Origin: an uncultured bacterium
Lineage (GTDB): Bacteria > CSSED10-310 > CAZUFC01
Assembly (NCBI GenBank): GCA_964619725.1
Contig: CAZUFC010000209.1
Coordinates: forward strand, 1-10,149
Length of the DNA: 10,149 nucleotides
Reading direction: 5' to 3'
Below, piece after piece: positions 259 through 9,540 of this stretch (its first letter is position 1; each line of letters begins with the position of its first letter). The notes under the pieces were generated by a model. The model saw only the letters and a program-made list of their open reading frames with translations. It searched no databases and was not told where the DNA came from. A program made the position numbers and the translations under genes.

Positions 259-2622
259 TCATGACCTCTTCAATCTATTAGTCATATATTTTCCTAAAAG
301 TTTCATGGCCGTATCTGCGCTTCTCAGGGTTACTATATTTTGGGATTCGAGATATTCCACGGCGGGATCGTATATTTTTCCGGCATCGACAACGGCTACG
401 ACGGGTTTGTCGAAATTGCGGGCGATATGGGGCAGCGTTTGCATGATGGAGTGTTCGGCGGTGTAGAGGAGTTCCGGTTTATCGTTTGATGGGGCCGTTG
501 CGGTCATGGGAGAAAAGGGCACCAGGCCGACCAGGAGAGCATGGATATCATTATCCTGAAGCATCGAGCTGACTATTTCGGCGTATACCTTGTCGTCGGC
601 CATAGGTGTGATGTCGAGAGGATTGCGCATGTCTACGATGGCATCAATCTTTAATTTCGAGAAGGCCCTCCTGATGCTGTTTTCCGTCGCCGGTTTAAAG
701 TCAAGCAGATTGAACGCGTAATCTTCGCCTTTAACATTGTCTGCCATGGCCACGCATTCATAACCGGCATTGCTTAAGGCCGCCAGGTTCATTCCTTTAA
801 TTTCCTTTCCGTCAAGATAATCCGCCAATCGCATCAGTCCCCTGAATTCGTCGAAATCTTCGGCGATCAGCGCTCCGGATTCTTTCAACACTGCCTTGCA
901 AACCTTGTAATCCCCGGCAATGGATGCTGTATGTCCTGAAGTGGCTTTTCTGCCTTCAGACGTTCTTCCGGCTTTATAGACGATGACGGTTTTTCCTTTT
1001 TTTACGGCTTGTTCGGTCAACCGGGCGAAACGGTACCCGTCGACTTCCTTGAAACCTTCAACATACAAGGCCAAAATTTTAGCTTGAGGGGTTTCCAGGC
1101 AGAATTCCAGGTAATCGGAAACAGTCACGTCGACTTGATTTCCCGATGATATCGACAATAAAGGATTTAATCCCGAAAGTTTCGTTATCCGGCCCAGCAT
1201 GAATGCGCCGCTTTGAGATACCAGAACGGTTTTGCCTTCGCTTCCCGAAGGCTCAGGCATTTTACTTTTCGGTGAAAAAATGGTGTTGTAATTGCCGATC
1301 AGCGACCTTATACCCATGCAATTGCCGCCGTTGACTACGAATCCTTCCCCCTCTTTTCTGCGCGACCTTCTCACGATTTCCCTGATTTTTTGCTCGATCG
1401 ACTCTCCGCCTGACTTTTCTGCCATTCCTCCCGTTATTAGGACGACAGATTCGGTTTTCTGCATTCGCTCGAATTTTTCCATCAACTCTGGAACCTGAGC
1501 CGCATTGATTGAAACGACCGTCATATCCATTTTTTCCGGTAAATCTTTTATATCAGGCACGCAACGGACTCCGTCGATTTCATCCGAACCGGGTTTCACG
1601 ATATATAACTGTTCTTTGGGATATCCGAATTCAATAATGTTGCGCAGGATAACGCGTCCCATATTCATGCTTCCGGCTGAGACGCCGATTATTCCAATGG
1701 TTTCAGGTTTAAGGAGTTTCGTGATTTTCTGTAAGGGTCTTGAAGGCGGCGTATCCCCTTTAAGGCTGAATCTGCATAAGGCATCGGCGGGTACGAGCCT
1801 GCCTTTTGATATTATGAACGGATTAATTTCGAATTCGTCCAGTTTAAATTCCGCTGCTCCCTCAGGACCGAAATATCGGGCCAAGGACCGATAAGTTTCA
1901 TAAATTTTCATTATCTCATCGTCTTCGATAAGACGGCCCTGCATTCTAACGCGGCCGGTCATTTTTTTTGCAATGATCGTATCAGAGAAAAGCTGCATGA
2001 ACCTGTCGGGAGAGGTAAGGCCGGGGGAGGCTAACACAAAGCCTTTGCCCGGCTTAAAGGCATCGGCCATTAATTCCGTGTCTACTCCGCCCACGTTGGA
2101 AATGACGATAGGGCCGAATTCCCGTGACCAGTTCAGGCCCATAAAAAATTCGCCTCCGAAACCTTCGTGATCAGCGGTTACATAATTGCACACCAGGATG
2201 CCGCATAAGTCCTTCAGAAATTGCTTTTCAATCTGTTTCCCATCCAGATTCCTGTAATTGTCATGTAAAATCTTACCGGCTTCAACTTCACGCCGGAATC
2301 GTACCGGCATCTCTATCAGCATCTCTTTAAAAGCCGCTTCAACCTTTACCGCATCAGCTTCCACGATGCGCACTCCACCAATATCAGATTTATGAATAAC
2401 AGCAGGCGATACGACTTTAAGAACTACTCTGGACGTCCCCAGGCGGTCCACAAAACCCCAGTCAGGCGCTCCCTGCGGAGGAACAAGGTTCCCGAACCTT
2501 CCCTCTATGCCTGCAGCAGCCAGAAATTCATAAACTTCATGCTCGAATAATTCGTAGCGACCTTCCTCCACTGCCTTTTTTAATATTTCATGACATTCGT
2601 TAAAGTCGATTTCGATTTTCAA
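259..2622 (-). CDS. ADP-forming acyl-CoA synthetase (acetate--CoA ligase family, ACD), single-chain beta-alpha fusion
   Basis: 787 aa. N-terminal ATP-grasp region (VVLKVVSPAVIHKSDIGGV with His77, FGPIV, EFEINP, DAL), then CoA-binding domain (PETIGIIGVS, GGNCMG), SQSG, GNQVDV, YVEG, KAGRT, phospho-His motif TSGHTASIAG (His564), SNAGY and NPLDIT. TTG start with AAGGAG 7 nt upstream. Confidence 0.93.
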   Translation of the reverse strand: MKIEIDFNECHEILKKAVEEGRYELFEHEVYEFLAAAGIEGRFGNLVPPQGAPDWGFVDRLGTSRVVLKVVSPAVIHKSDIGGVRIVEADAVKVEAAFKEMLIEMPVRFRREVEAGKILHDNYRNLDGKQIEKQFLKDLCGILVCNYVTADHEGFGGEFFMGLNWSREFGPIVISNVGGVDTELMADAFKPGKGFVLASPGLTSPDRFMQLFSDTIIAKKMTGRVRMQGRLIEDDEIMKIYETYRSLARYFGPEGAAEFKLDEFEINPFIISKGRLVPADALCRFSLKGDTPPSRPLQKITKLLKPETIGIIGVSAGSMNMGRVILRNIIEFGYPKEQLYIVKPGSDEIDGVRCVPDIKDLPEKMDMTVVSINAAQVPELMEKFERMQKTESVVLITGGMAEKSGGESIEQKIREIVRRSRRKEGEGFVVNGGNCMGIRSLIGNYNTIFSPKSKMPEPSGSEGKTVLVSQSGAFMLGRITKLSGLNPLLSISSGNQVDVTVSDYLEFCLETPQAKILALYVEGFKEVDGYRFARLTEQAVKKGKTVIVYKAGRTSEGRKATSGHTASIAGDYKVCKAVLKESGALIAEDFDEFRGLMRLADYLDGKEIKGMNLAALSNAGYECVAMADNVKGEDYAFNLLDFKPATENSIRRAFSKLKIDAIVDMRNPLDITPMADDKVYAEIVSSMLQDNDIHALLVGLVPFSPMTATAPSNDKPELLYTAEHSIMQTLPHIARNFDKPVVAVVDAGKIYDPAVEYLESQNIVTLRSADTAMKLLGKYMTNRLKRS

Positions 2623-3035
2623 TAGTGTCTCCTTTTCAGTTGAAACAGATTAATGAATTTATTATTTGTGAAGAATACATATAACAAATTGACGCTGAAC
2701 ATTTTAAGAGCTCGAACAAAGTCCCGGCAAACCAAACGTCTCTGCGCGACAGCGAAAAAACCGCGTGGGCATTCGGAAAGCTTCAGCGTTTTTCTGAGGC
2801 CGTATGAAGTTATCAGCGCCGAAAAGTACAATTCAGTATTGACGGAAGAAAAGTGAAATAATTTGTGGGCATAATGATGTTCGGGCATTCGGTCGAGAGT
2901 CGGACCATCGTCAGTTAATCTCACTTTTACATACGCTTGACACAATAGACAGATGATTTTCATTTTACACTTTAAATACAAGTATTTATAAAGCTTATTC
3001 GTCTGAACAAAAAATATAAAACTGTGACTTCATAG

Positions 3036-3073
3036 AAAGCCCCCCTATATCCCCCCGCAAGCGGGGGGACTTT
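3036..3073. repeat. C/G-rich palindrome (REP-like, possibly acting as a terminator or mRNA stabiliser)
   Basis: TCCCCCCGC-AA-GCGGGGGGA perfect inverted repeat at 3050-3069, preceded by AAAGCCCCCC, which can pair alternatively with GGGGGG(A)CTTT. Confidence 0.65.
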
Positions 3074-3145
3074 GTCTGTGAGCGCTGTTTGACTGTCTGA
3101 TTTCGGCAGTCCACTATTTTTGATTCCGGGCAGCCTCTGTTGGGA

Positions 3146-3175
3146 ATCGGTGTCGGTATAGGCATCGCAATCGTA
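3146..3175. repeat. Degenerate hexamer tandem repeat (RTCGNN), copy 1
   Basis: ATCGGT GTCGGT ATAGGC ATCGCA ATCGTA; a similar array lies at 9407-9430. Confidence 0.55.
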
Positions 3176-3302
3176 AATCAAATATACAGAATGAAGCCAA
3201 TCGAACTCTTGTGTCACGTGTGTTTAATAGTCAGGTCAGTTAATAGGGGTCAGCCTGTTTGAAATTTTACAGACGAAATTCCATCACGCAGGGCCGGCGA
3301 AT

Positions 3303-4133
3303 TCATGCTGATTCGAGGACTTTCAGAATTTCCGATGAGTGAAAATCCTGAAGCGACGTCAATTTATCGATCAGGTCGCTATTGCCGGGGATAAAGCTTT
3401 CGAGTTCAACGAGAGCTGATATCAAGGGTTCCCGGTTCGGACCGTTCAGGAGTTCAGCCCAGGATTTCTCAATGCCGGGTTCGATATTTTCGGGGGATAT
3501 CCGGGAAGAAAGAGCCAGGGATTTAACTCCGTTGAGACCTGCATCCAGGCACGCTTGAAAGAAATTTCCGATGATTTTTCCATAACTCAAAGCTTTAAAA
3601 TTGGCTTCCACTATTCGCTCGCCTTTTTTTCCGAACAACACCCTGACAGATTCCTGAAGGTCGCTTTCCTGAAAGGGCAACCAGTTGGATGCGGCGCCCA
3701 GCATGACCATATTCTCCGTTTTTTTGCTGCCGGCGAAGCCGGCTAATCTTTTCGCATGTATCAGGACATACTGAGGCAACCTCATTACAGCTTGAAGCGT
3801 ATTCGCTTCGTCAGGGTAATTGGGTATGTTGACGAAAGGGTCGGCGCTTGAAACGACTCGTCCTTCAGGATGGAGGTAATGAGCGTAACGGAGTGATTCC
3901 AGCGGTTCTACGGAAAGAATCATATCCGCTTTTCCGACTGGGATAAGGTCGCTGTGGATGTCAGTGTCGGCTATTCTTAGATGAGATTGAACGGCCCCGC
4001 CTCTTTGAGACATGCCGTGCACTTCAGCCTGCTTGATTTTTAAGTTTTTATTTAATGCTGCAATATCTATGGCGGCGGCGATGGACAATATGCCTTGTCC
4101 GCCGACGCCGGCAAGTATCAGATCGCTTTTCAT
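3303..4133 (-). CDS. iorB: Indolepyruvate ferredoxin oxidoreductase beta subunit with a C-terminal extension
   Basis: 276 aa. Motifs AGVGGQG, EVHGMSQRGGAV.SHLRI, EPLES.R and NMVMLGA. GGAGG ribosome-binding site 9 nt upstream. Directly downstream of iorA. Confidence 0.95.
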   Translation of the reverse strand: MKSDLILAGVGGQGILSIAAAIDIAALNKNLKIKQAEVHGMSQRGGAVQSHLRIADTDIHSDLIPVGKADMILSVEPLESLRYAHYLHPEGRVVSSADPFVNIPNYPDEANTLQAVMRLPQYVLIHAKRLAGFAGSKKTENMVMLGAASNWLPFQESDLQESVRVLFGKKGERIVEANFKALSYGKIIGNFFQACLDAGLNGVKSLALSSRISPENIEPGIEKSWAELLNGPNREPLISALVELESFIPGNSDLIDKLTSLQDFHSSEILKVLESA

Positions 4134-4188
4134 TCGTATTTACCTCCAGGTTTAATTCCGCTTGTCAAAAGTTCCTTTTGCAATTCAA

Positions 4189-5793
4189 TTACCCTTTTTT
4201 ACGAAGGATATGGATGCAGGGACGCTGAGAAATAACAACCGAAAGACCTTCATAATCAAATTCTTCGCGTAGAATTTTCACATTCTGCTCATGATTTTTA
4301 GGCAAAGGTTTAATCGTTCGGATATGTTCAGGGTCAACGCCGATGCCGACTATGAGGTTCTTCAGCCTATCGCCTTCGGCCATGGTCGGCTGGAAACCCG
4401 TCATCGCTACCGTGCCGTTGTCCATAATGACGACGGTCATGGGCGTATTTTCCTGCGCCGCGGCCAGCAGGGGCGTCATGCCGGAATGAGTGAAAGTCGA
4501 ATCCCCGATGGCGCATACGGAAGGATGAATCCCCGCGTAAGCCGCCCCAGATGCCATCGATACGCTGGCGCCCATGTCGACGCATGAGTGAATAGCGGAA
4601 TAGGGCGGGTAATAACCCAGGGTATAGCAGCCGATATCGCTCATGACCCTTGGCTTTTCGCCGGCGCATTCGTATATCTCAAGCGCTTCTTTCATCGCTT
4701 TATAAGTGTCGCGATGAGGGCAGCCCTGGCAGAGCGCGGGAGGACGCCCGACCAGGATATCCTTTTGAATTTCTGCGGCTGTAGGTCTCGGTTCCAGCTT
4801 CAGGGCGGTTCTGATCAGGTCCGGATTCAGTTCGCCTGTGCGAGGTAAATTTCCGGACAATTTGCCGTGCACATTCTTGTCGCATAGTCCGAAAGGTCCG
4901 TTCAAATAGGATTCGATAAAAGGATACCCATCTTCAAAAATCGTGATGTCCGTCGATGCGGAGACGAGTTTGTGCAGCTTTTCGCGCGGCAATGGATAAA
5001 ACTTGATGAATAATGTCGAAGGCGGCTCAGCCAGATCGCTCAGGTTCTCTTTTACGTAATTGACGGCTATACCCGATGCTATAATGCCGGAATTGCTCTT
5101 TTCATTTATTCTTAACTCATTATAAGGGGTTTCGTCAGAATAGGCTTTGAATTGGTCGTATTTTTCTAATAGATCGATGAACGCGGATCTGGCATTGGAA
5201 GGTAAAAGAGTCCAGGTGAATGTGTTCTCATCCCATTTCAACTCGTTCTCATTTCGAGGCTCTTTAGGGACGATCACCGAACGGCTGTGAGCCAGCCGGG
5301 TAACCAAACGAAGCAATACCGGTATTTTATACTTTTCCGACAAGGCGAACGCCTCATAAGTCATGTCGTAAGCCTGCTGATGATCGGAAGGTTCAAAAAT
5401 CGGTATATGAGCGAATTGACCGTAATAACGGGTATCCTGTTCATTTTGCGATGAGTGCATGCCGGGATCGTCGGCCACCGCCACGACAAGTCCGCCGTGA
5501 GCTCCCGTATTAGCCGAATTCATGAACGGGTCCGCAGCCACGTTTAATCCGACATGCTTCATCGATACTATGGCTCTCCTGCCGGCATACGACATTCCCA
5601 TAGCCTCTTCATATGCCGATTTCTCGTTTGTTGACCAGTTCGCATGTATCCCGCCGTTTTTCGTCGCATAAGCCGTGATATACTCGAATATCTCCGTCGC
5701 CGGCGTTCCAGGATATGCAAAAGCGCCGCTTATGCCGGCATGAATCGCCGCCAGTGCAACCGCTTCGTCGCCCAAAAGAATTTGTTTATTCAT
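4189..5793 (-). CDS. iorA: Indolepyruvate ferredoxin oxidoreductase alpha subunit (TPP-dependent), short form without the C-terminal ferredoxin domain
   Basis: 534 aa. Motifs LLGDEA, AYPGTPATEI, NEKSAYE, MKHVGLNVAAD, DDPGMHSSQNEQD, RPPALCQGCPH, DIGCY, TPP motif GDSTFTHSG...DN..AMTG, and terminal RPC. Confidence 0.96.
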   Translation of the reverse strand: MNKQILLGDEAVALAAIHAGISGAFAYPGTPATEIFEYITAYATKNGGIHANWSTNEKSAYEEAMGMSYAGRRAIVSMKHVGLNVAADPFMNSANTGAHGGLVVAVADDPGMHSSQNEQDTRYYGQFAHIPIFEPSDHQQAYDMTYEAFALSEKYKIPVLLRLVTRLAHSRSVIVPKEPRNENELKWDENTFTWTLLPSNARSAFIDLLEKYDQFKAYSDETPYNELRINEKSNSGIIASGIAVNYVKENLSDLAEPPSTLFIKFYPLPREKLHKLVSASTDITIFEDGYPFIESYLNGPFGLCDKNVHGKLSGNLPRTGELNPDLIRTALKLEPRPTAAEIQKDILVGRPPALCQGCPHRDTYKAMKEALEIYECAGEKPRVMSDIGCYTLGYYPPYSAIHSCVDMGASVSMASGAAYAGIHPSVCAIGDSTFTHSGMTPLLAAAQENTPMTVVIMDNGTVAMTGFQPTMAEGDRLKNLIVGIGVDPEHIRTIKPLPKNHEQNVKILREEFDYEGLSVVISQRPCIHILRKKG

Positions 5794-5984: not shown

Positions 5985-6013
5985 GGAACACTTTATCGTG
6001 TAGGATTGTGTAA
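5985..6013 (+). promoter_or_regulatory. Putative ECF-sigma-dependent (autoregulatory) promoter
   Basis: G-GAACAC (5985-5991), 16-nt spacer, GTGTAA (6008-6013), resembling the RpoE-type GAACTT-N16-GTC pattern, 20 nt upstream of the sigma start. Confidence 0.55.
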
Positions 6014-6033
6014 GCAAATGGGAAGAGAGAGAA

Positions 6034-6654
6034 ATGAACCGGACTGAACTAAGCGACAACCTGTTAATGAAATCTGTTGCCGACGGAGATGCAGGAAGTT
6101 TCGACATCCTGGTTTCCAGGCATCAGAACAGGCTTGTCAATTATCTCTTCAGAATGACCCGAAACAGGGAGACTGCCATGGACCTGGCACAGGAAACATT
6201 CATTAGAGTTTACAAAGCGGCAGACAGGTATGAGCATACGCGAGCCTTCAGTACATGGTTGTATCGAATAGCGACGAACCTGGCGATCAACAACATTAAA
6301 CGAAAGAAAATCGTCCGTTTTATTTCATGGGAAACGATAAAGACAGCGACAGGACTCAAGAAACGACTGTCGCATAAAGACCCTGATCCTGAACAGAAAT
6401 TGCTGATGTCCGAAAGACAGAAACTCGTTTGGGACCTCTTGAATTCAATGCCGGCAAAATATAGAACTCCCTTGATACTCAAGGATATAGAAGGTTTGCC
6501 CTATGCCAGGATATCAGAAATAATGAATTTAAATGAAGGAACCGTCAAATCGCGGCTGAACCGCGGAAGAAAACTGCTGCGTGAGAAGGTCATCCGCAAT
6601 GAACCTGAATGGGCGGAGACCGAACCTGTCGTCGCGATGGAGGAACGTAATTAA
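6034..6654 (+). CDS. ECF RNA polymerase sigma factor (RpoE/SigW-like)
   Basis: 206 aa. Region 2: GDAGSFDILVSRHQ, AMDLAQETFIRVY, FSTWLYRIATN. Region 4: L.DIEGLPYARISEIMNLNEGTVKSRLNRGR. Stop overlaps the next start (TAATG, 6652-6656). Confidence 0.96.
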   Translation: MNRTELSDNLLMKSVADGDAGSFDILVSRHQNRLVNYLFRMTRNRETAMDLAQETFIRVYKAADRYEHTRAFSTWLYRIATNLAINNIKRKKIVRFISWETIKTATGLKKRLSHKDPDPEQKLLMSERQKLVWDLLNSMPAKYRTPLILKDIEGLPYARISEIMNLNEGTVKSRLNRGRKLLREKVIRNEPEWAETEPVVAMEERN

Positions 6655-7349
6655 TGAACTGTAGAGAATGCAAAAGACAAATTAGCGCCTATATAGATAA
6701 AGAATTGACCGACAATGAATCAGCCGTGATGAGCATGCATCTCTCCGAGTGCGATGAATGCGTATCGGAATTCAACTCATTGTCTGAGCTTAAAAATGAA
6801 ATGGCATCATTGAAAGGCGTATTGACTGCAGAATACGATCAGGAGACTTTTCTGAAAAAAGTGAAGGCAGAAACCGTTAATAAAAAGCAAAGGTTGAAGG
6901 CATACTCCCGTTTTACGCCCGTGCCTGCAGGCTTTGCAGCCGCCGTTGTCCTCCTGATAATCGGTTATCTTGTCTTTTCTCCTCATCTTAACGAAGTCAT
7001 GCCGCCGGAGTTTAAACAAGCCCATAATCTGGAAAATCTCAACGGCGCTGCAATGAAAAGCGGAAACGATACAGGCGGCGTTACGGCAGTCTCCGACAGC
7101 GTTTCAGAAAGCGACGTTTTGCATTATGCTGAGAGTATTTCATCAGGAAATATCGGATATTCAAGAGTATCCGTGGTCGAATATAAATTACCGACATATT
7201 TTCCGTTCTCTTACGACGGGCAGGTAAGTGATGCCGTGCCTGTCGAATTGATCGAAGCGGGATTGAATTATTCCAGGCCTGTAATTCATTCTCCGGAATC
7301 TTACAATGCATCTGTAAAAAATGCGGTATATACCCGCGTAGCGCTTTAG
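6654..7349 (+). CDS. Zinc-binding anti-sigma factor (zf-HC2/ZAS), single transmembrane helix
   Basis: 231 aa. MNC...ISAYIDKEL...HLSECDEC (Cys3, His29-x3-Cys33-x2-Cys36), hydrophobic segment AGFAAAVVLLIIGYLVF, then an extracytoplasmic region of about 120 aa. GGAGG upstream and translational coupling to the sigma gene. Confidence 0.93.
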   Translation: MNCRECKRQISAYIDKELTDNESAVMSMHLSECDECVSEFNSLSELKNEMASLKGVLTAEYDQETFLKKVKAETVNKKQRLKAYSRFTPVPAGFAAAVVLLIIGYLVFSPHLNEVMPPEFKQAHNLENLNGAAMKSGNDTGGVTAVSDSVSESDVLHYAESISSGNIGYSRVSVVEYKLPTYFPFSYDGQVSDAVPVELIEAGLNYSRPVIHSPESYNASVKNAVYTRVAL

Positions 7350-7361
7350 GAGGAAAAGAAG

Positions 7362-9230
7362 ATGAACAGAATAAACATAAAAAAAGCCATTATCGTCCCG
7401 GCGTTGGCCTATTTCATTCTGGCAGGCGCCGGGGTTTTTGCTGCCGGAGAGTTGCTGACGGATTGGGAAAGAGATGTTCAGGAGCTGTTCAAGGGAGCAT
7501 TGCCGTCCATAGTGAAGGTTGTGGCTGAACAAAAGCCTGTCATGCATAAGGTGGGGCAGGTTCAATATCAATACTTAATGCCGACGCGCGTCAGTGTGGG
7601 CACAGGAGCGGTATACGACGATGAAGGACATATCGTGACGTCTGCGGGCATAGTCGGTGATTCAGAGAAAGTTAAGGTCATCGACACAAGCGGGAATGAA
7701 TATGAGGCTGTGGTTGTGGGAGCGGATGATTTTTCTGATATTGCCGTCATTAAAGCGGTAAATCTGTCGGCGCCTGAAATTGCATGCGAAATGCTGGAGG
7801 GTATCGATCCCGGCAGCGTCGCTTTGCTGATCGGTTATTCTGTGACAGAGAGTCCCAATTTTTCTTTCGGGTTTATTAACGTGCTTTCCTCATCCGAAGA
7901 AGACCTCAAAAACGCCAAACTTACTTTCGGAGGCCCTCTGTTGCCGGGAAATGCCGGAGCTCCCCTGATTGATGTTGATGGCAGACTCATCGGCATGCTC
8001 AAGGGGCAAATCAAGTCGGACATGATAAACTGGGTGCAAAAACCGGATTGGAGCAAGGAATTCCTTAAAGACAAAGAAGGACTTAAAAAATACAAGGACG
8101 AGAGGGCCGTGTGGGTTCCCGATTCTGATGAGATGCTGAATTACTACTACTTTACGCCTTCCGAAAAACAGAAACCCAAATTGATCCAGAACATAACGAG
8201 GGTCGCCGATGCTTCCAAAGGTTTGGGATTGGCTACACCGGTCAATATGATCATCAACGTTTCGGAAAAACTGATCAAATACGGCCAGGTCAGGAGAGGA
8301 TGGCTGGGTGTGACTATTCAGCATACGATGCAACCTGTCGAGGGCGCTTTGGTCATATCTGTGATTGAAGACAGTCCTGCTGAAAAAGCCGGCATCCAGG
8401 AACAGGATGTCATTATGGAGATTGAGGGAGAAGCGATAAAAGACGTTATCGCACTTGTCAAAATGGTTCAGAGTCATGAATCGGGCGATGAAATTTCCGT
8501 TAAATTGTACCGGGATGAAGAAGAAATTGAATTGAATGCTGTTTTGGAAGTTAAAAGGGACCAGCCCGCGCCTTATTATAAACAAATGATGGAAGAGAAA
8601 ATGCCTCAGATGAAAAAGAAAAGCAAACCTAAACTGGGCGTCATCGTTCAGGACGTGATCGACGAAGAGAGTGGAGAAGCTGAAGCTCAGAAAATCGATG
8701 GAACGACCATAATTAAAGTCATTGAAGGTTCTCCTGCTGAAAAAGCGGGCTTAAAGGAGAACGACGTCATCATCGCCATTGACGATCACGATATTGACTC
8801 TAGCGGCGCATTACTCCGGACTCTGGGCCTCTATGAAGGCGATGAAGAAATTGAAATAGCGGTGATCAGAGGCGATAAAGAAGTTAGCTTCCATGCAAAG
8901 TTGGAAGCCGGATTCAAATATGAAATGAAGCCGGGCGACATTGATTTTGAACAGAAAGAGACGCTCGTGGTACCTCAGAGCGGGCTGGAAGGACTTGAAT
9001 TTTGGAAATGGCAACAGGATTCCAGCGAGAAGCAATACCAGATGCAGATCGAAAAGTTGAACCAGGAGCTGGAGAAACTGAAGGATAAACTTCAACGATT
9101 ACATGAAGAACGCGACTACGAAAAATCTCTGGATGAGATGAAAAAAGAATTGCAGCAGATGAAAGAGATGCAGAAGAAATTCGATGAGCTTCTGAAGGAG
9201 AGGAATTCGAATGCGGACAGTCAGACTTGA
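7362..9230 (+). CDS. Secreted HtrA/DegP-like protein: trypsin-like domain (predicted catalytically inactive), two PDZ domains and a C-terminal coiled coil
   Basis: 622 aa. Signal peptide ending VFA (27/28). HtrA landmarks PSIVKV, GTGAVYDDEGHIVT, SDIAVIK, PGNAGAPLIDVDGRLIG, GLGLATP, G.VRRGWLGV, and SPAEKAG..DVI twice. AGGAGG site (7348-7353) overlaps the anti-sigma stop. Confidence 0.92.
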   Translation: MNRINIKKAIIVPALAYFILAGAGVFAAGELLTDWERDVQELFKGALPSIVKVVAEQKPVMHKVGQVQYQYLMPTRVSVGTGAVYDDEGHIVTSAGIVGDSEKVKVIDTSGNEYEAVVVGADDFSDIAVIKAVNLSAPEIACEMLEGIDPGSVALLIGYSVTESPNFSFGFINVLSSSEEDLKNAKLTFGGPLLPGNAGAPLIDVDGRLIGMLKGQIKSDMINWVQKPDWSKEFLKDKEGLKKYKDERAVWVPDSDEMLNYYYFTPSEKQKPKLIQNITRVADASKGLGLATPVNMIINVSEKLIKYGQVRRGWLGVTIQHTMQPVEGALVISVIEDSPAEKAGIQEQDVIMEIEGEAIKDVIALVKMVQSHESGDEISVKLYRDEEEIELNAVLEVKRDQPAPYYKQMMEEKMPQMKKKSKPKLGVIVQDVIDEESGEAEAQKIDGTTIIKVIEGSPAEKAGLKENDVIIAIDDHDIDSSGALLRTLGLYEGDEEIEIAVIRGDKEVSFHAKLEAGFKYEMKPGDIDFEQKETLVVPQSGLEGLEFWKWQQDSSEKQYQMQIEKLNQELEKLKDKLQRLHEERDYEKSLDEMKKELQQMKEMQKKFDELLKERNSNADSQT

Positions 9231-9314: not shown

Positions 9315-9347
9315 AGCCGGCGGCAGAACGTGTCGCCGGCTTTTTTT
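9315..9347 (+). terminator. Rho-independent terminator of the sigma/anti-sigma/htrA-like operon
   Basis: Stem GCCGGCGGCA / TGTCGCCGGC (10 bp, one G-U pair), 5-nt loop, followed by seven T. Confidence 0.88.
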
Positions 9348-9406
9348 GGGGACTCATCAAATCGCGGTTACACTCCTTTCAAAACTTTTGACGGTTTGCT
9401 TCAGTA

Positions 9407-9430: not shown

Positions 9431-9540
9431 ACAAAATGATTGGAGATTCTGTCGAATTGTAATCTCAAAACACGGATATTTGATCAATGTCCAAAAAAGC
9501 ATCTATAATCCATTAAAAATAAAGACTATCTTTGTTTCAT

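Follow-up and report, generated by a model that had tools for sequence, protein, structure and literature searches.

What part can an HtrA-like protein play beside a sigma factor of the extracytoplasmic function (ECF) type when it has lost the means to cut? Bacteria rely heavily on ECF sigma factors to sense the state of their envelope, and in the textbook case it is an active HtrA protease (DegS or AlgW) that sets the response off by cutting the anti-sigma factor. The question is raised by a contig of 10,149 nucleotides from an uncultured bacterium (CAZUFC010000209.1; contig C209 of a 9.17-Mb draft genome in 344 contigs, 90.9% complete with 6.5% contamination), which we analysed over its whole length and call the window. 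On its plus strand lies a three-gene unit in which an ECF sigma factor (P0122) is followed by an anti-sigma factor of the zf-HC2 (ZAS) type (P0121) and, as the third and last gene, by an HtrA-like open reading frame (ORF; product P0001). Sequence and predicted structure point to a natural and ancient HtrA pseudoprotease tied to this sigma/anti-sigma pair, for which we infer a mechanism below. In P0001 and in many relatives from uncultured phyla, the sigma-linked HtrA-like gene encodes a protein that, by its residues, should be unable to cut and yet shows purifying selection, as measured on the relatives.

The fold and the catalytic positions of P0001

P0001 was compared with the HtrA family by sequence and by structure. 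By Pfam, residues 80-212 form a Trypsin_2 domain (61.1 bits, cut-off 27.6) that is joined by two PDZ domains, and a phmmer search matched the solved chains of HtrA/DegP-like proteins (7xs0_A, 5y2d_A, 22kg_A) with E values down to 1.9e-31. The AlphaFold model has a mean predicted local distance difference test score (pLDDT) of 65, with the protease core and both PDZ domains folded confidently, and its top Foldseek matches are DegP (3otp_E, E 2.1e-32, probability 1.00) and DegQ. The cut-offs of the curated NCBIfam HtrA models are all missed: the protein scores 188.2 bits on TIGR02037 (cut-off 416.2), 107.5 on the DegP model (720), 106.1 on the DegQ model (756), and 116.5 and 109.7 on the DegS models (408 and 423).

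The alignments to the PDB chains locate the three catalytic positions. The segment 'ivtsagiv' lies over 'ivtnnhvi', which puts Gly96 at the position of the catalytic His; 'sdiavik' lies over 'sdlavir', so that the catalytic Asp is kept as Asp126; and 'pgnaga' lies over 'pgnsgg', which puts Ala198 at the position of the nucleophilic Ser. An earlier note, made from the sequence alone, had read the same three states, and both the alignments and the codons (GGC, GAT and GCC) bear it out. The surrounding scaffold is preserved. Across 15 rows of the family, G196 and G199 of the L1 nucleophile loop are invariant, as are the scaffold glycines of the protease fold, and in PDZ1 the residues R312, G313 and G316 are invariant and W314 is nearly so. 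The peptide-binding loops of both PDZ domains are intact in sequence. The first 300 residues contain only two His (62 and 90) and the whole protein a single Cys (142), all three unconserved in the nearest homologue, P0200; neither the composition of P0001 nor its alignment with P0200 revealed a conserved alternative catalytic His, Cys or Ser. Judged from its residues and its modelled fold, P0001 is an HtrA (S1C) homologue without the His-Asp-Ser (H-D-S) triad and is predicted to be unable to act as a serine protease.

The gene itself is in good order. It forms an uninterrupted frame of 622 codons, with an AGGAGG ribosome-binding site before it and an 11-bp hairpin with a T run behind it, and the earlier note was thus right about the full-length frame and its flanking signals; the signal peptide that it also named is putative and was read by eye. 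Contigs assembled run by run from four public sequencing runs show 0 differences to the gene in 15 pieces, with codon 96 covered in three of the runs and codon 198 in all four. These runs all come from one microbial-mat study, and one of them is possibly the window's own source.

Relatives of P0001, their operons and their evolution

Among 5.8 billion clustered proteins P0001 has no close homologue: the best non-self match reaches 137 bits, against 1356 for P0001 itself. The nearest clusters in the ESM Atlas carry the generic label 'PDZ/Trypsin-like peptidase' and come from Gemmatimonadota, Eiseniibacteriota, Aminicenantota and Acidobacteriota; we regard them as leads only. To reach more distant relatives, a four-row profile made from P0001 and His-less matches was used for an exhaustive search, from which we took the best 150 rows; in 114 of these, all three triad positions and the G-x-x-G loop frame could be placed in the alignment. 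The triad is intact in 31 of the 114. The His is lost in 78, and 43 of those have lost the Ser as well, whereas five rows keep the His and have lost the Asp or the Ser. The profile was built from degenerate sequences, so these shares are not frequencies in nature. HtrA-like proteins without the His form a large and diverse set, within which Gly at this position is confined to 5 of the 114 rows (P0001, P0200, P0177, P0167 and P0195).

When protease domains are compared, P0200, encoded on a metagenome contig (locus L049), comes out as the nearest relative, with 111 bits where the following match has about 84. The two proteins align end to end with 27% identity over 596 aa (E 8e-55), and P0200 mirrors P0001 in its Gly/Asp/Ala triad positions, in an insertion in the same loop, in its two PDZ domains and in its coiled-coil tail. 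The site of the insertion (residues 216-287 in P0001) is presumably loop L2 of the HtrA nomenclature. Shorter insertions are found there in P0200, P0195, P0006/69/87 and all loci of the window's phylum that read Ser/Asn/Ser (S/N/S) at the triad positions, and none in canonical HtrAs. C-terminal coiled-coil tails comparable to that of P0001 are present in P0200, P0177, P0167, P0195, P0006, P0069 and the orthologue in genome G004; neither the S/N/S clade nor canonical HtrAs have them. Two loci were discarded: L050, from a metagenome, encodes a canonical H-D-S HtrA, and L048, the sole locus of the genome collection returned by a search with a two-row alignment, is a weak and irrelevant match. A triad-intact HtrA-like protease domain also occurs on contig C21 of the window's genome (locus L003), where an open frame of 1112 aa continues it into a long C-terminal region; the portion present, 803 aa, runs off the locus end and shows FG-GAP/VCBS-like repeats by eye.

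The window's phylum, in which relatives are labelled 'candidate division CSSED10-310', is represented in our collection by 14 species genomes, the window's own and 13 others. A His-less HtrA-like gene occurs in 11 of these 13 (S/N/S in ten, Ala/Gly/Val in G004). Ten of the 11 genes, namely nine S/N/S loci and that of G004, lie verifiably behind orthologous sigma and anti-sigma genes; the tenth S/N/S locus (L030) is cut by a contig end. Identity of the window's sigma factor is 43-44% with those of nine phylum loci, 39% with the one of L049 and 35% with the one of G004. The upstream ORFs of the nine S/N/S loci match the window's anti-sigma factor as well, and Pfam confirmed the sigma and zf-HC2 domains in all four S/N/S loci tested. 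On the contig of P0200, an ECF sigma factor gene followed by that of a single-pass anti-sigma-like protein stands directly upstream on the same strand. Genome G001 has an orthologous sigma/anti-sigma pair without an HtrA-like neighbour (L058, contig C15, 1201-2010), and in G002 the contig ends 331 nt beyond the anti-sigma gene. Of the 18 database clusters in the S/N/S clade, 17 read S/N/S and one T/N/S. Homologues in the same synteny, a comparison for which the earlier note had called, hence keep the losses: P0200 reads Gly/Asp/Ala, and the His is found neither in the 11 phylum orthologues nor in the 18 clusters. Close homologues with both His and Ser, which that note had named as evidence against its own reading, did not appear, the nearest being P0200.

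Two further modules depart from this pattern in their details. The operon of G004, the phylum's other genome of about 9 Mb, has the same order, and its protein (Trypsin_2 at 41 bits; L051, contig C154, 4052-5662, minus strand) has all three triad positions replaced and has lost the PGN of the nucleophile loop too, while keeping two PDZ domains and a coiled coil as in P0001. This combination suggests that the PDZ and coiled-coil part carries a conserved function. The window's own genome (G000) contains a second module on contig C66 (L044; 673-2199, 2246-2833 and 2802-3404, all on the minus strand) with an ECF sigma factor, an anti-sigma-like ORF of 196 aa and an HtrA-like protein reading Glu/Asn/Ser. 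Its middle ORF has no Pfam match and shows an H-x3-C-x2-C motif by eye; its HtrA-like protein has one PDZ domain and a C-terminal GWxTD match of 17.7 bits, below the cut-off.

The operons also share a candidate promoter. A GGAAC-N18-GT(A/T) motif, recognised by eye, precedes the sigma gene in all 10 loci whose upstream DNA extends for 87 nt or more (the window, L031, L032, L034, L035, L037, L038, L039, L044 and L049), L033 and L036 having too little upstream DNA to be counted. By our estimate, GGAAC-N17-19-GTGTAA would occur by chance about a dozen times in 9.2 Mb. The conserved GGAAC-N18-GT motif is probably an autoregulatory ECF promoter, and it could serve to define the regulon; because the motif is conserved, we infer that the operon is autoregulated.

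Selection was measured on pairs of relatives. For S/N/S orthologues from two congeneric pairs, the ratio of nonsynonymous to synonymous substitution rates (dN/dS) came to 0.130 and 0.088, and the anti-sigma genes of the same two pairs give 0.087 and 0.129; more distant pairs (L030/L038 and L036/L037) are saturated, with undefined dS. The purifying selection expected by the earlier note holds for these relatives (0.09-0.13), which are the only measurable sequences. We then inferred a quick maximum likelihood tree of 69 rows, drawn from the matches to a profile built on degenerate sequences. A single clade unites the 19 H-D-S rows, two of them paralogues encoded in the window's genome (support of 97 in the Shimodaira-Hasegawa-like approximate likelihood ratio test, SH-aLRT), and the 50 degenerate rows all fall outside it. 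P0001 and P0200 pair together (87), and the pair is sister to the S/N/S clade of the phylum (82). The Asp and Ser positions vary by lineage, with G/D/A here and S/N/S, A/G/V or E/N/S elsewhere. The absence of the His from every relative, together with lineage-dependent states at the other two positions, fits an old loss of catalysis, with the His as its primary event, followed by drift at the idle Asp and Ser sites. The earlier note had proposed two separate losses within the triad; both His and Ser are indeed gone from P0001, but the primary ancient event would be that of the His, the states at Asp and Ser having drifted. Its broader proposal, a selected non-proteolytic HtrA derivative in this operon slot, gains support from the triad and synteny of P0200, the 11 His-less orthologues of the phylum and the dN/dS of the relatives.

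Possible roles beside the anti-sigma factor

Known systems offer several points of comparison. DegS of E. coli and AlgW of P. aeruginosa share with P0001 an HtrA fold with PDZ, as seen in the PDB sequence and Foldseek matches, and a link to an ECF sigma factor and a single-pass anti-sigma factor. In DegS, the PDZ domain that recognises C-terminal aromatic/hydrophobic peptides is the sensing element (in part from PMC8103513). Both are active proteases that have the full triad, a single PDZ domain and an anchor at the N-terminus, and their genes lie outside the sigma operon, whereas P0001 lacks the His and Ser and has two PDZ domains, the 70-residue loop insertion and the coiled-coil tail. MucD, the product of the last gene of algU-mucABCD, is closer in having two PDZ domains and a place at the end of a sigma/anti-sigma operon, and its structure (8k2y) was matched by both the PDB sequence search and Foldseek; DegP and DegQ, also two-PDZ HtrAs, are the best fold matches. 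All three are active H-D-S enzymes, whereas the inactive state of P0001 appears to be natural and ancient. The inactive DegP S210A is a laboratory mutant. RseB and MucB are comparable in role only: by analogy with them, P0001 would bind the anti-sigma factor in the periplasm, non-enzymatically and from within the operon, but its fold is unrelated to theirs, that of RseB being LolA-like. The operon has no RseB/MucB gene by Pfam, the only MucB_RseB match in the genome is weak, partial (31.8 bits) and on another contig, and P0001 itself has no Pfam match to the MucB_RseB domain (PF03888).

Degenerate HtrA/trypsin-2 proteins retained for non-catalytic roles are described from magnetotactic bacteria, in the form of MamO and inactive MamE duplicates, and catalytic loss arose repeatedly among proteins of this type (PMC4794232). 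MamO differs from P0001 by its place in the magnetosome island, its TauE transporter domain, its di-histidine metal binding and the lack of a sigma/anti-sigma link (PMC4794232). P0001 has neither a TauE domain by Pfam nor a match to the NCBIfam MamO model at E <=0.001, and a relative from its phylum scores 32.8 bits on that model (cut-off 800). Going by titles and the opening lines of abstracts, MamO is the only bacterial HtrA-family pseudoprotease that we found in the literature. We found no published description of a dead HtrA in an ECF sigma operon, although the supplements on ECF groups may hold one: HtrA, DegP, trypsin, PDZ and serine protease are not named anywhere in the main text of the paper on ECF reclassification (PMC7826278), and its supplementary group descriptions may cover this context. 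One paper matched a search on ECF, anti-sigma and HtrA inactivity; by its title and the start of its abstract, it concerns the Prc protease and not a dead-HtrA module.

The reading that we favour, and to which we give a probability of roughly 55%, is that P0001 works in the periplasm without catalysis, as a partner or sensor of its anti-sigma factor whose regulated proteolysis it most likely gates. The operon would be autoregulated by its own sigma factor through the GGAAC-N18-GT motif. P0001 would be exported, having kept an HtrA-like peptide-binding scaffold (the PGNxG frame, two PDZ domains and an enlarged L2 loop), and would bind the periplasmic part of the single-pass anti-sigma factor via its EYxLxxY motif and/or its C-terminal tail YTRVAL. 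Binding would shield the anti-sigma factor from real site-1 proteases and an RseP-type site-2 protease, or expose it to them, and competing ligands such as unfolded envelope proteins could displace P0001 from it. The resulting picture is that of a DegS-shaped sensor that would have taken on an RseB/MucB-like binding role.

The anti-sigma factors provide the features on which such a contact could depend. P0121 has one predicted membrane span, placed by eye at about residues 90-108, and a putative periplasmic part at 111-231 that contains an EYKLPTY motif at 176-182 and ends in YTRVAL-COOH. In an alignment of 11 anti-sigma factors the periplasmic parts are variable, with Y177 and P196 invariant and Y226 nearly so; the shared elements are an EYxLxxY-type motif and a Tyr-x-Arg-x-hydrophobic-hydrophobic C-terminal end (YTRVAL in the window, YERTIY in most relatives). 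The anti-sigma factors that adjoin a dead HtrA end in Tyr or Leu in 13 of 13 cases. The one of G001, without an HtrA-like neighbour, ends in ...VRTANK, with a terminal Lys, which is the pattern to be expected if the tail were the ligand of the partner, in this single case. Proteases that could carry out the cleavage are encoded elsewhere in the genome, namely triad-intact HtrA paralogues and an RseP-type M50 site-2 protease (232 bits). A prediction of the complex between residues 30-520 of P0001 and 111-231 of the anti-sigma factor, with alignments as input, scored 0.01 and 0.06 against a mark of 0.32, the partner's own fold being uncertain, and the outcome weighs neither way. The conserved operon and the conserved anti-sigma tail favour a role tied to the anti-sigma factor.

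Several points weigh against this reading. The contact is deduced wholly from synteny and short motifs, and membership in the operon would be equally expected, by analogy, of an effector of the stress regulon, as the precedents of degP and mucD indicate: degP belongs to the sigma-E regulon and mucD to the algU operon (algU-mucABCD). The contrast provided by G001 is one case. The motif similarity between the anti-sigma factors of the window and of L049 is weak (one match of 24 residues, E 0.015 in a two-sequence comparison), and the tails of L049 (ENSIML) and of the C66 module (QEGLTL) are without the Tyr-x-Arg part. The 70-residue insert and the coiled-coil tail are missing from the S/N/S orthologues, so the role of P0001 may differ from theirs; the dN/dS values come from those relatives and not from P0001, which has no close homologue. 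Finally, the tree is quick and unrooted, with long branches, and its groupings of P0001 are unstarred, with moderate support (82-87).

The main rival is that P0001 is a general periplasmic holdase, in effect a permanent DegP S210A. As one of the effectors of the sigma regulon, it would use its PDZ domains and dead cleft to bind unfolded envelope proteins, without specific contact with the anti-sigma factor. We regard this as unlikely, although it deserves serious weight. The HtrA fold and both PDZ domains are retained, the last position of the operon suits an effector (mucD and degP being precedents), the coiled-coil tail could drive the formation of oligomers or cages, and DegP S210A, as the earlier note pointed out, retains chaperone activity. 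Such a holdase would nevertheless leave two things unexplained, the short motifs and aromatic/aliphatic tail of the anti-sigma factors in 13 of 13 partnered cases, and the linkage of the three genes across relatives at only 27% identity. The L2 insertion, too, sits in a loop region that canonical HtrAs use for handling substrates.

Alternatively, P0001 could be an adaptor or activator, a dead subunit through which the anti-sigma factor is brought together with a site-1 protease, be it an active HtrA paralogue or a different one, or which activates that protease allosterically. There is a precedent in MamO, which activates MamE-dependent proteolysis (PMC4794232), and the genome has several triad-intact HtrA paralogues; yet no active HtrA gene lies in or beside any operon examined, and we consider this reading improbable. 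It is very improbable that P0001 is still a hydrolase using other residues: Asp126 and the PGNxG loop frame are kept, but position 198 and its neighbours (GNAGAP) offer no nucleophile, His62, His90 and Cys142 are not kept in P0200, and the Asp and Ser positions change freely among the relatives. Recent decay into a pseudogene, or a mistake of sequencing or assembly, which a draft genome in 344 contigs with an estimated contamination of 6.5% might have produced, is ruled out as far as sequence data reach by the intact frame with its ribosome-binding site and terminator, the agreement of the 15 contig pieces from four runs, the identical Gly and Ala in P0200 and the clade-wide loss of the His under purifying selection.

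If P0001 is a binding partner or sensor of its anti-sigma factor, as we favour, it would mean that signalling employs the HtrA scaffold in a second way that involves no proteolysis, and it would be a natural counterpart of the laboratory mutant DegP S210A. More tentatively, and with somewhat less confidence than the reading for P0001 itself, dead HtrAs could constitute an undescribed and widespread mode of ECF sigma control in uncultured phyla. A dead DegS-shaped protein would hold the HtrA-type bait of the anti-sigma factor (its periplasmic motif and tail), and envelope stress would be sensed as the C-termini of unfolded proteins compete for the PDZ domains or the cleft, freeing the anti-sigma factor for cleavage by other proteases. 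With its coiled-coil tail and 70-residue loop, the version in the window may further be a higher-order scaffold. There is also a consequence for annotation: the names that pipelines give to such proteins, 'serine protease Do', 'S1-C subfamily serine protease' or 'trypsin-like peptidase domain-containing protein', overstate the proteolytic capacity of these genomes.

Other features of the window

The features of the sigma operon are collected in Table 1. The start codon of the anti-sigma gene overlaps the stop codon of the sigma gene (ATGA). In NCBIfam, P0122 passes only the sigma70-ECF superfamily model, its best equivalog being SigW with 151.8 bits against a cut-off of 209. At gathering thresholds, Rfam finds no RNA family anywhere in the window.

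Table 1. Positions of the operon genes, their signals and the domains and key residues of P0001 in the window.
Feature	Position	Strand	Details
ECF-type promoter candidate	5985..6014	+	GGAAC 5985-5989, 18-nt spacer, GTGTAAG 6008-6014; about 20 nt before the sigma start codon
ECF sigma factor, 206 aa (P0122)	6034..6654	+	Pfam Sigma70_r2 75.6 bits, Sigma70_r4_2 62.3 bits
Class I (zf-HC2 / ZAS) anti-sigma factor, 231 aa (P0121)	6654..7349	+	Pfam zf-HC2 35.7 bits
Ribosome-binding site AGGAGG	7348..7353	+	8 nt upstream of the HtrA-like ATG; overlaps the anti-sigma stop codon; read from sequence
HtrA-fold pseudoprotease, 622 aa (P0001)	7362..9230	+	Single open frame; putative signal peptide, degenerate protease domain, PDZ1, PDZ2, C-terminal coiled coil
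Putative signal peptide or membrane anchor, residues 1-28	7362..7445	+	By eye: basic residues, hydrophobic 9-28 ending VFA|AG; AlphaFold helix 12-23
Degenerate trypsin-like protease domain, residues 76-300	7587..8261	+	Trypsin_2 80-212; PDB alignments 78-213, resuming at 284; pLDDT about 80-89 outside the insert
Gly96 at the catalytic His position	7647..7649	+	Codon GGC
Asp126, sole triad residue retained	7737..7739	+	Codon GAT
Ala198 at the nucleophile Ser position	7953..7955	+	Codon GCC; PGNxG loop frame (G196, G199) preserved
Insertion of about 70 residues, 216-287, after the nucleophile strand	8007..8222	+	Lys/Glu-rich, predicted disordered (pLDDT <50); gap in all PDB alignments 213-284
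PDZ1, residues 309-395	8286..8546	+	Pfam PDZ_2 315-392; carboxylate-binding loop R312-G313-W314-L315-G316 intact
PDZ2, residues 423-515	8628..8906	+	Loop K424-L425-G426-V427; PDB alignment 425-494; pLDDT 79-90
C-terminal helical, coiled-coil-like extension, residues 541-619	8982..9218	+	Model helices 541-582, 586-619
Intrinsic-terminator-like hairpin	9315..9348	+	11-bp stem (9315-9341), 8 GC pairs, then T run; operon end

Opposite the sigma operon, a divergent gene cluster occupies the minus strand from 259 to 5793. It encodes a 534-aa protein with POR_N and TPP_enzyme_C domains and a 276-aa protein with a POR domain, which together resemble the pair of a 2-oxoacid or indolepyruvate:ferredoxin oxidoreductase, followed by two small ORFs without a Pfam match (2972-3217 and 2619-2981) and then by a 787-aa protein similar to ADP-forming acyl-CoA synthetases (ATP-grasp_5, CoA_binding_2 and Succ_CoA_lig). 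This gene content fits a route of substrate-level phosphorylation from 2-oxoacids. Downstream of the operon, the roughly 800 bases up to the contig end (9349-10149) are AT-rich, with no ORF above 72 aa and no Rfam match, and carry a near-consensus sigma-70-like promoter (TTGATC-18-TATAAT) at 9480-9509, after the terminator.

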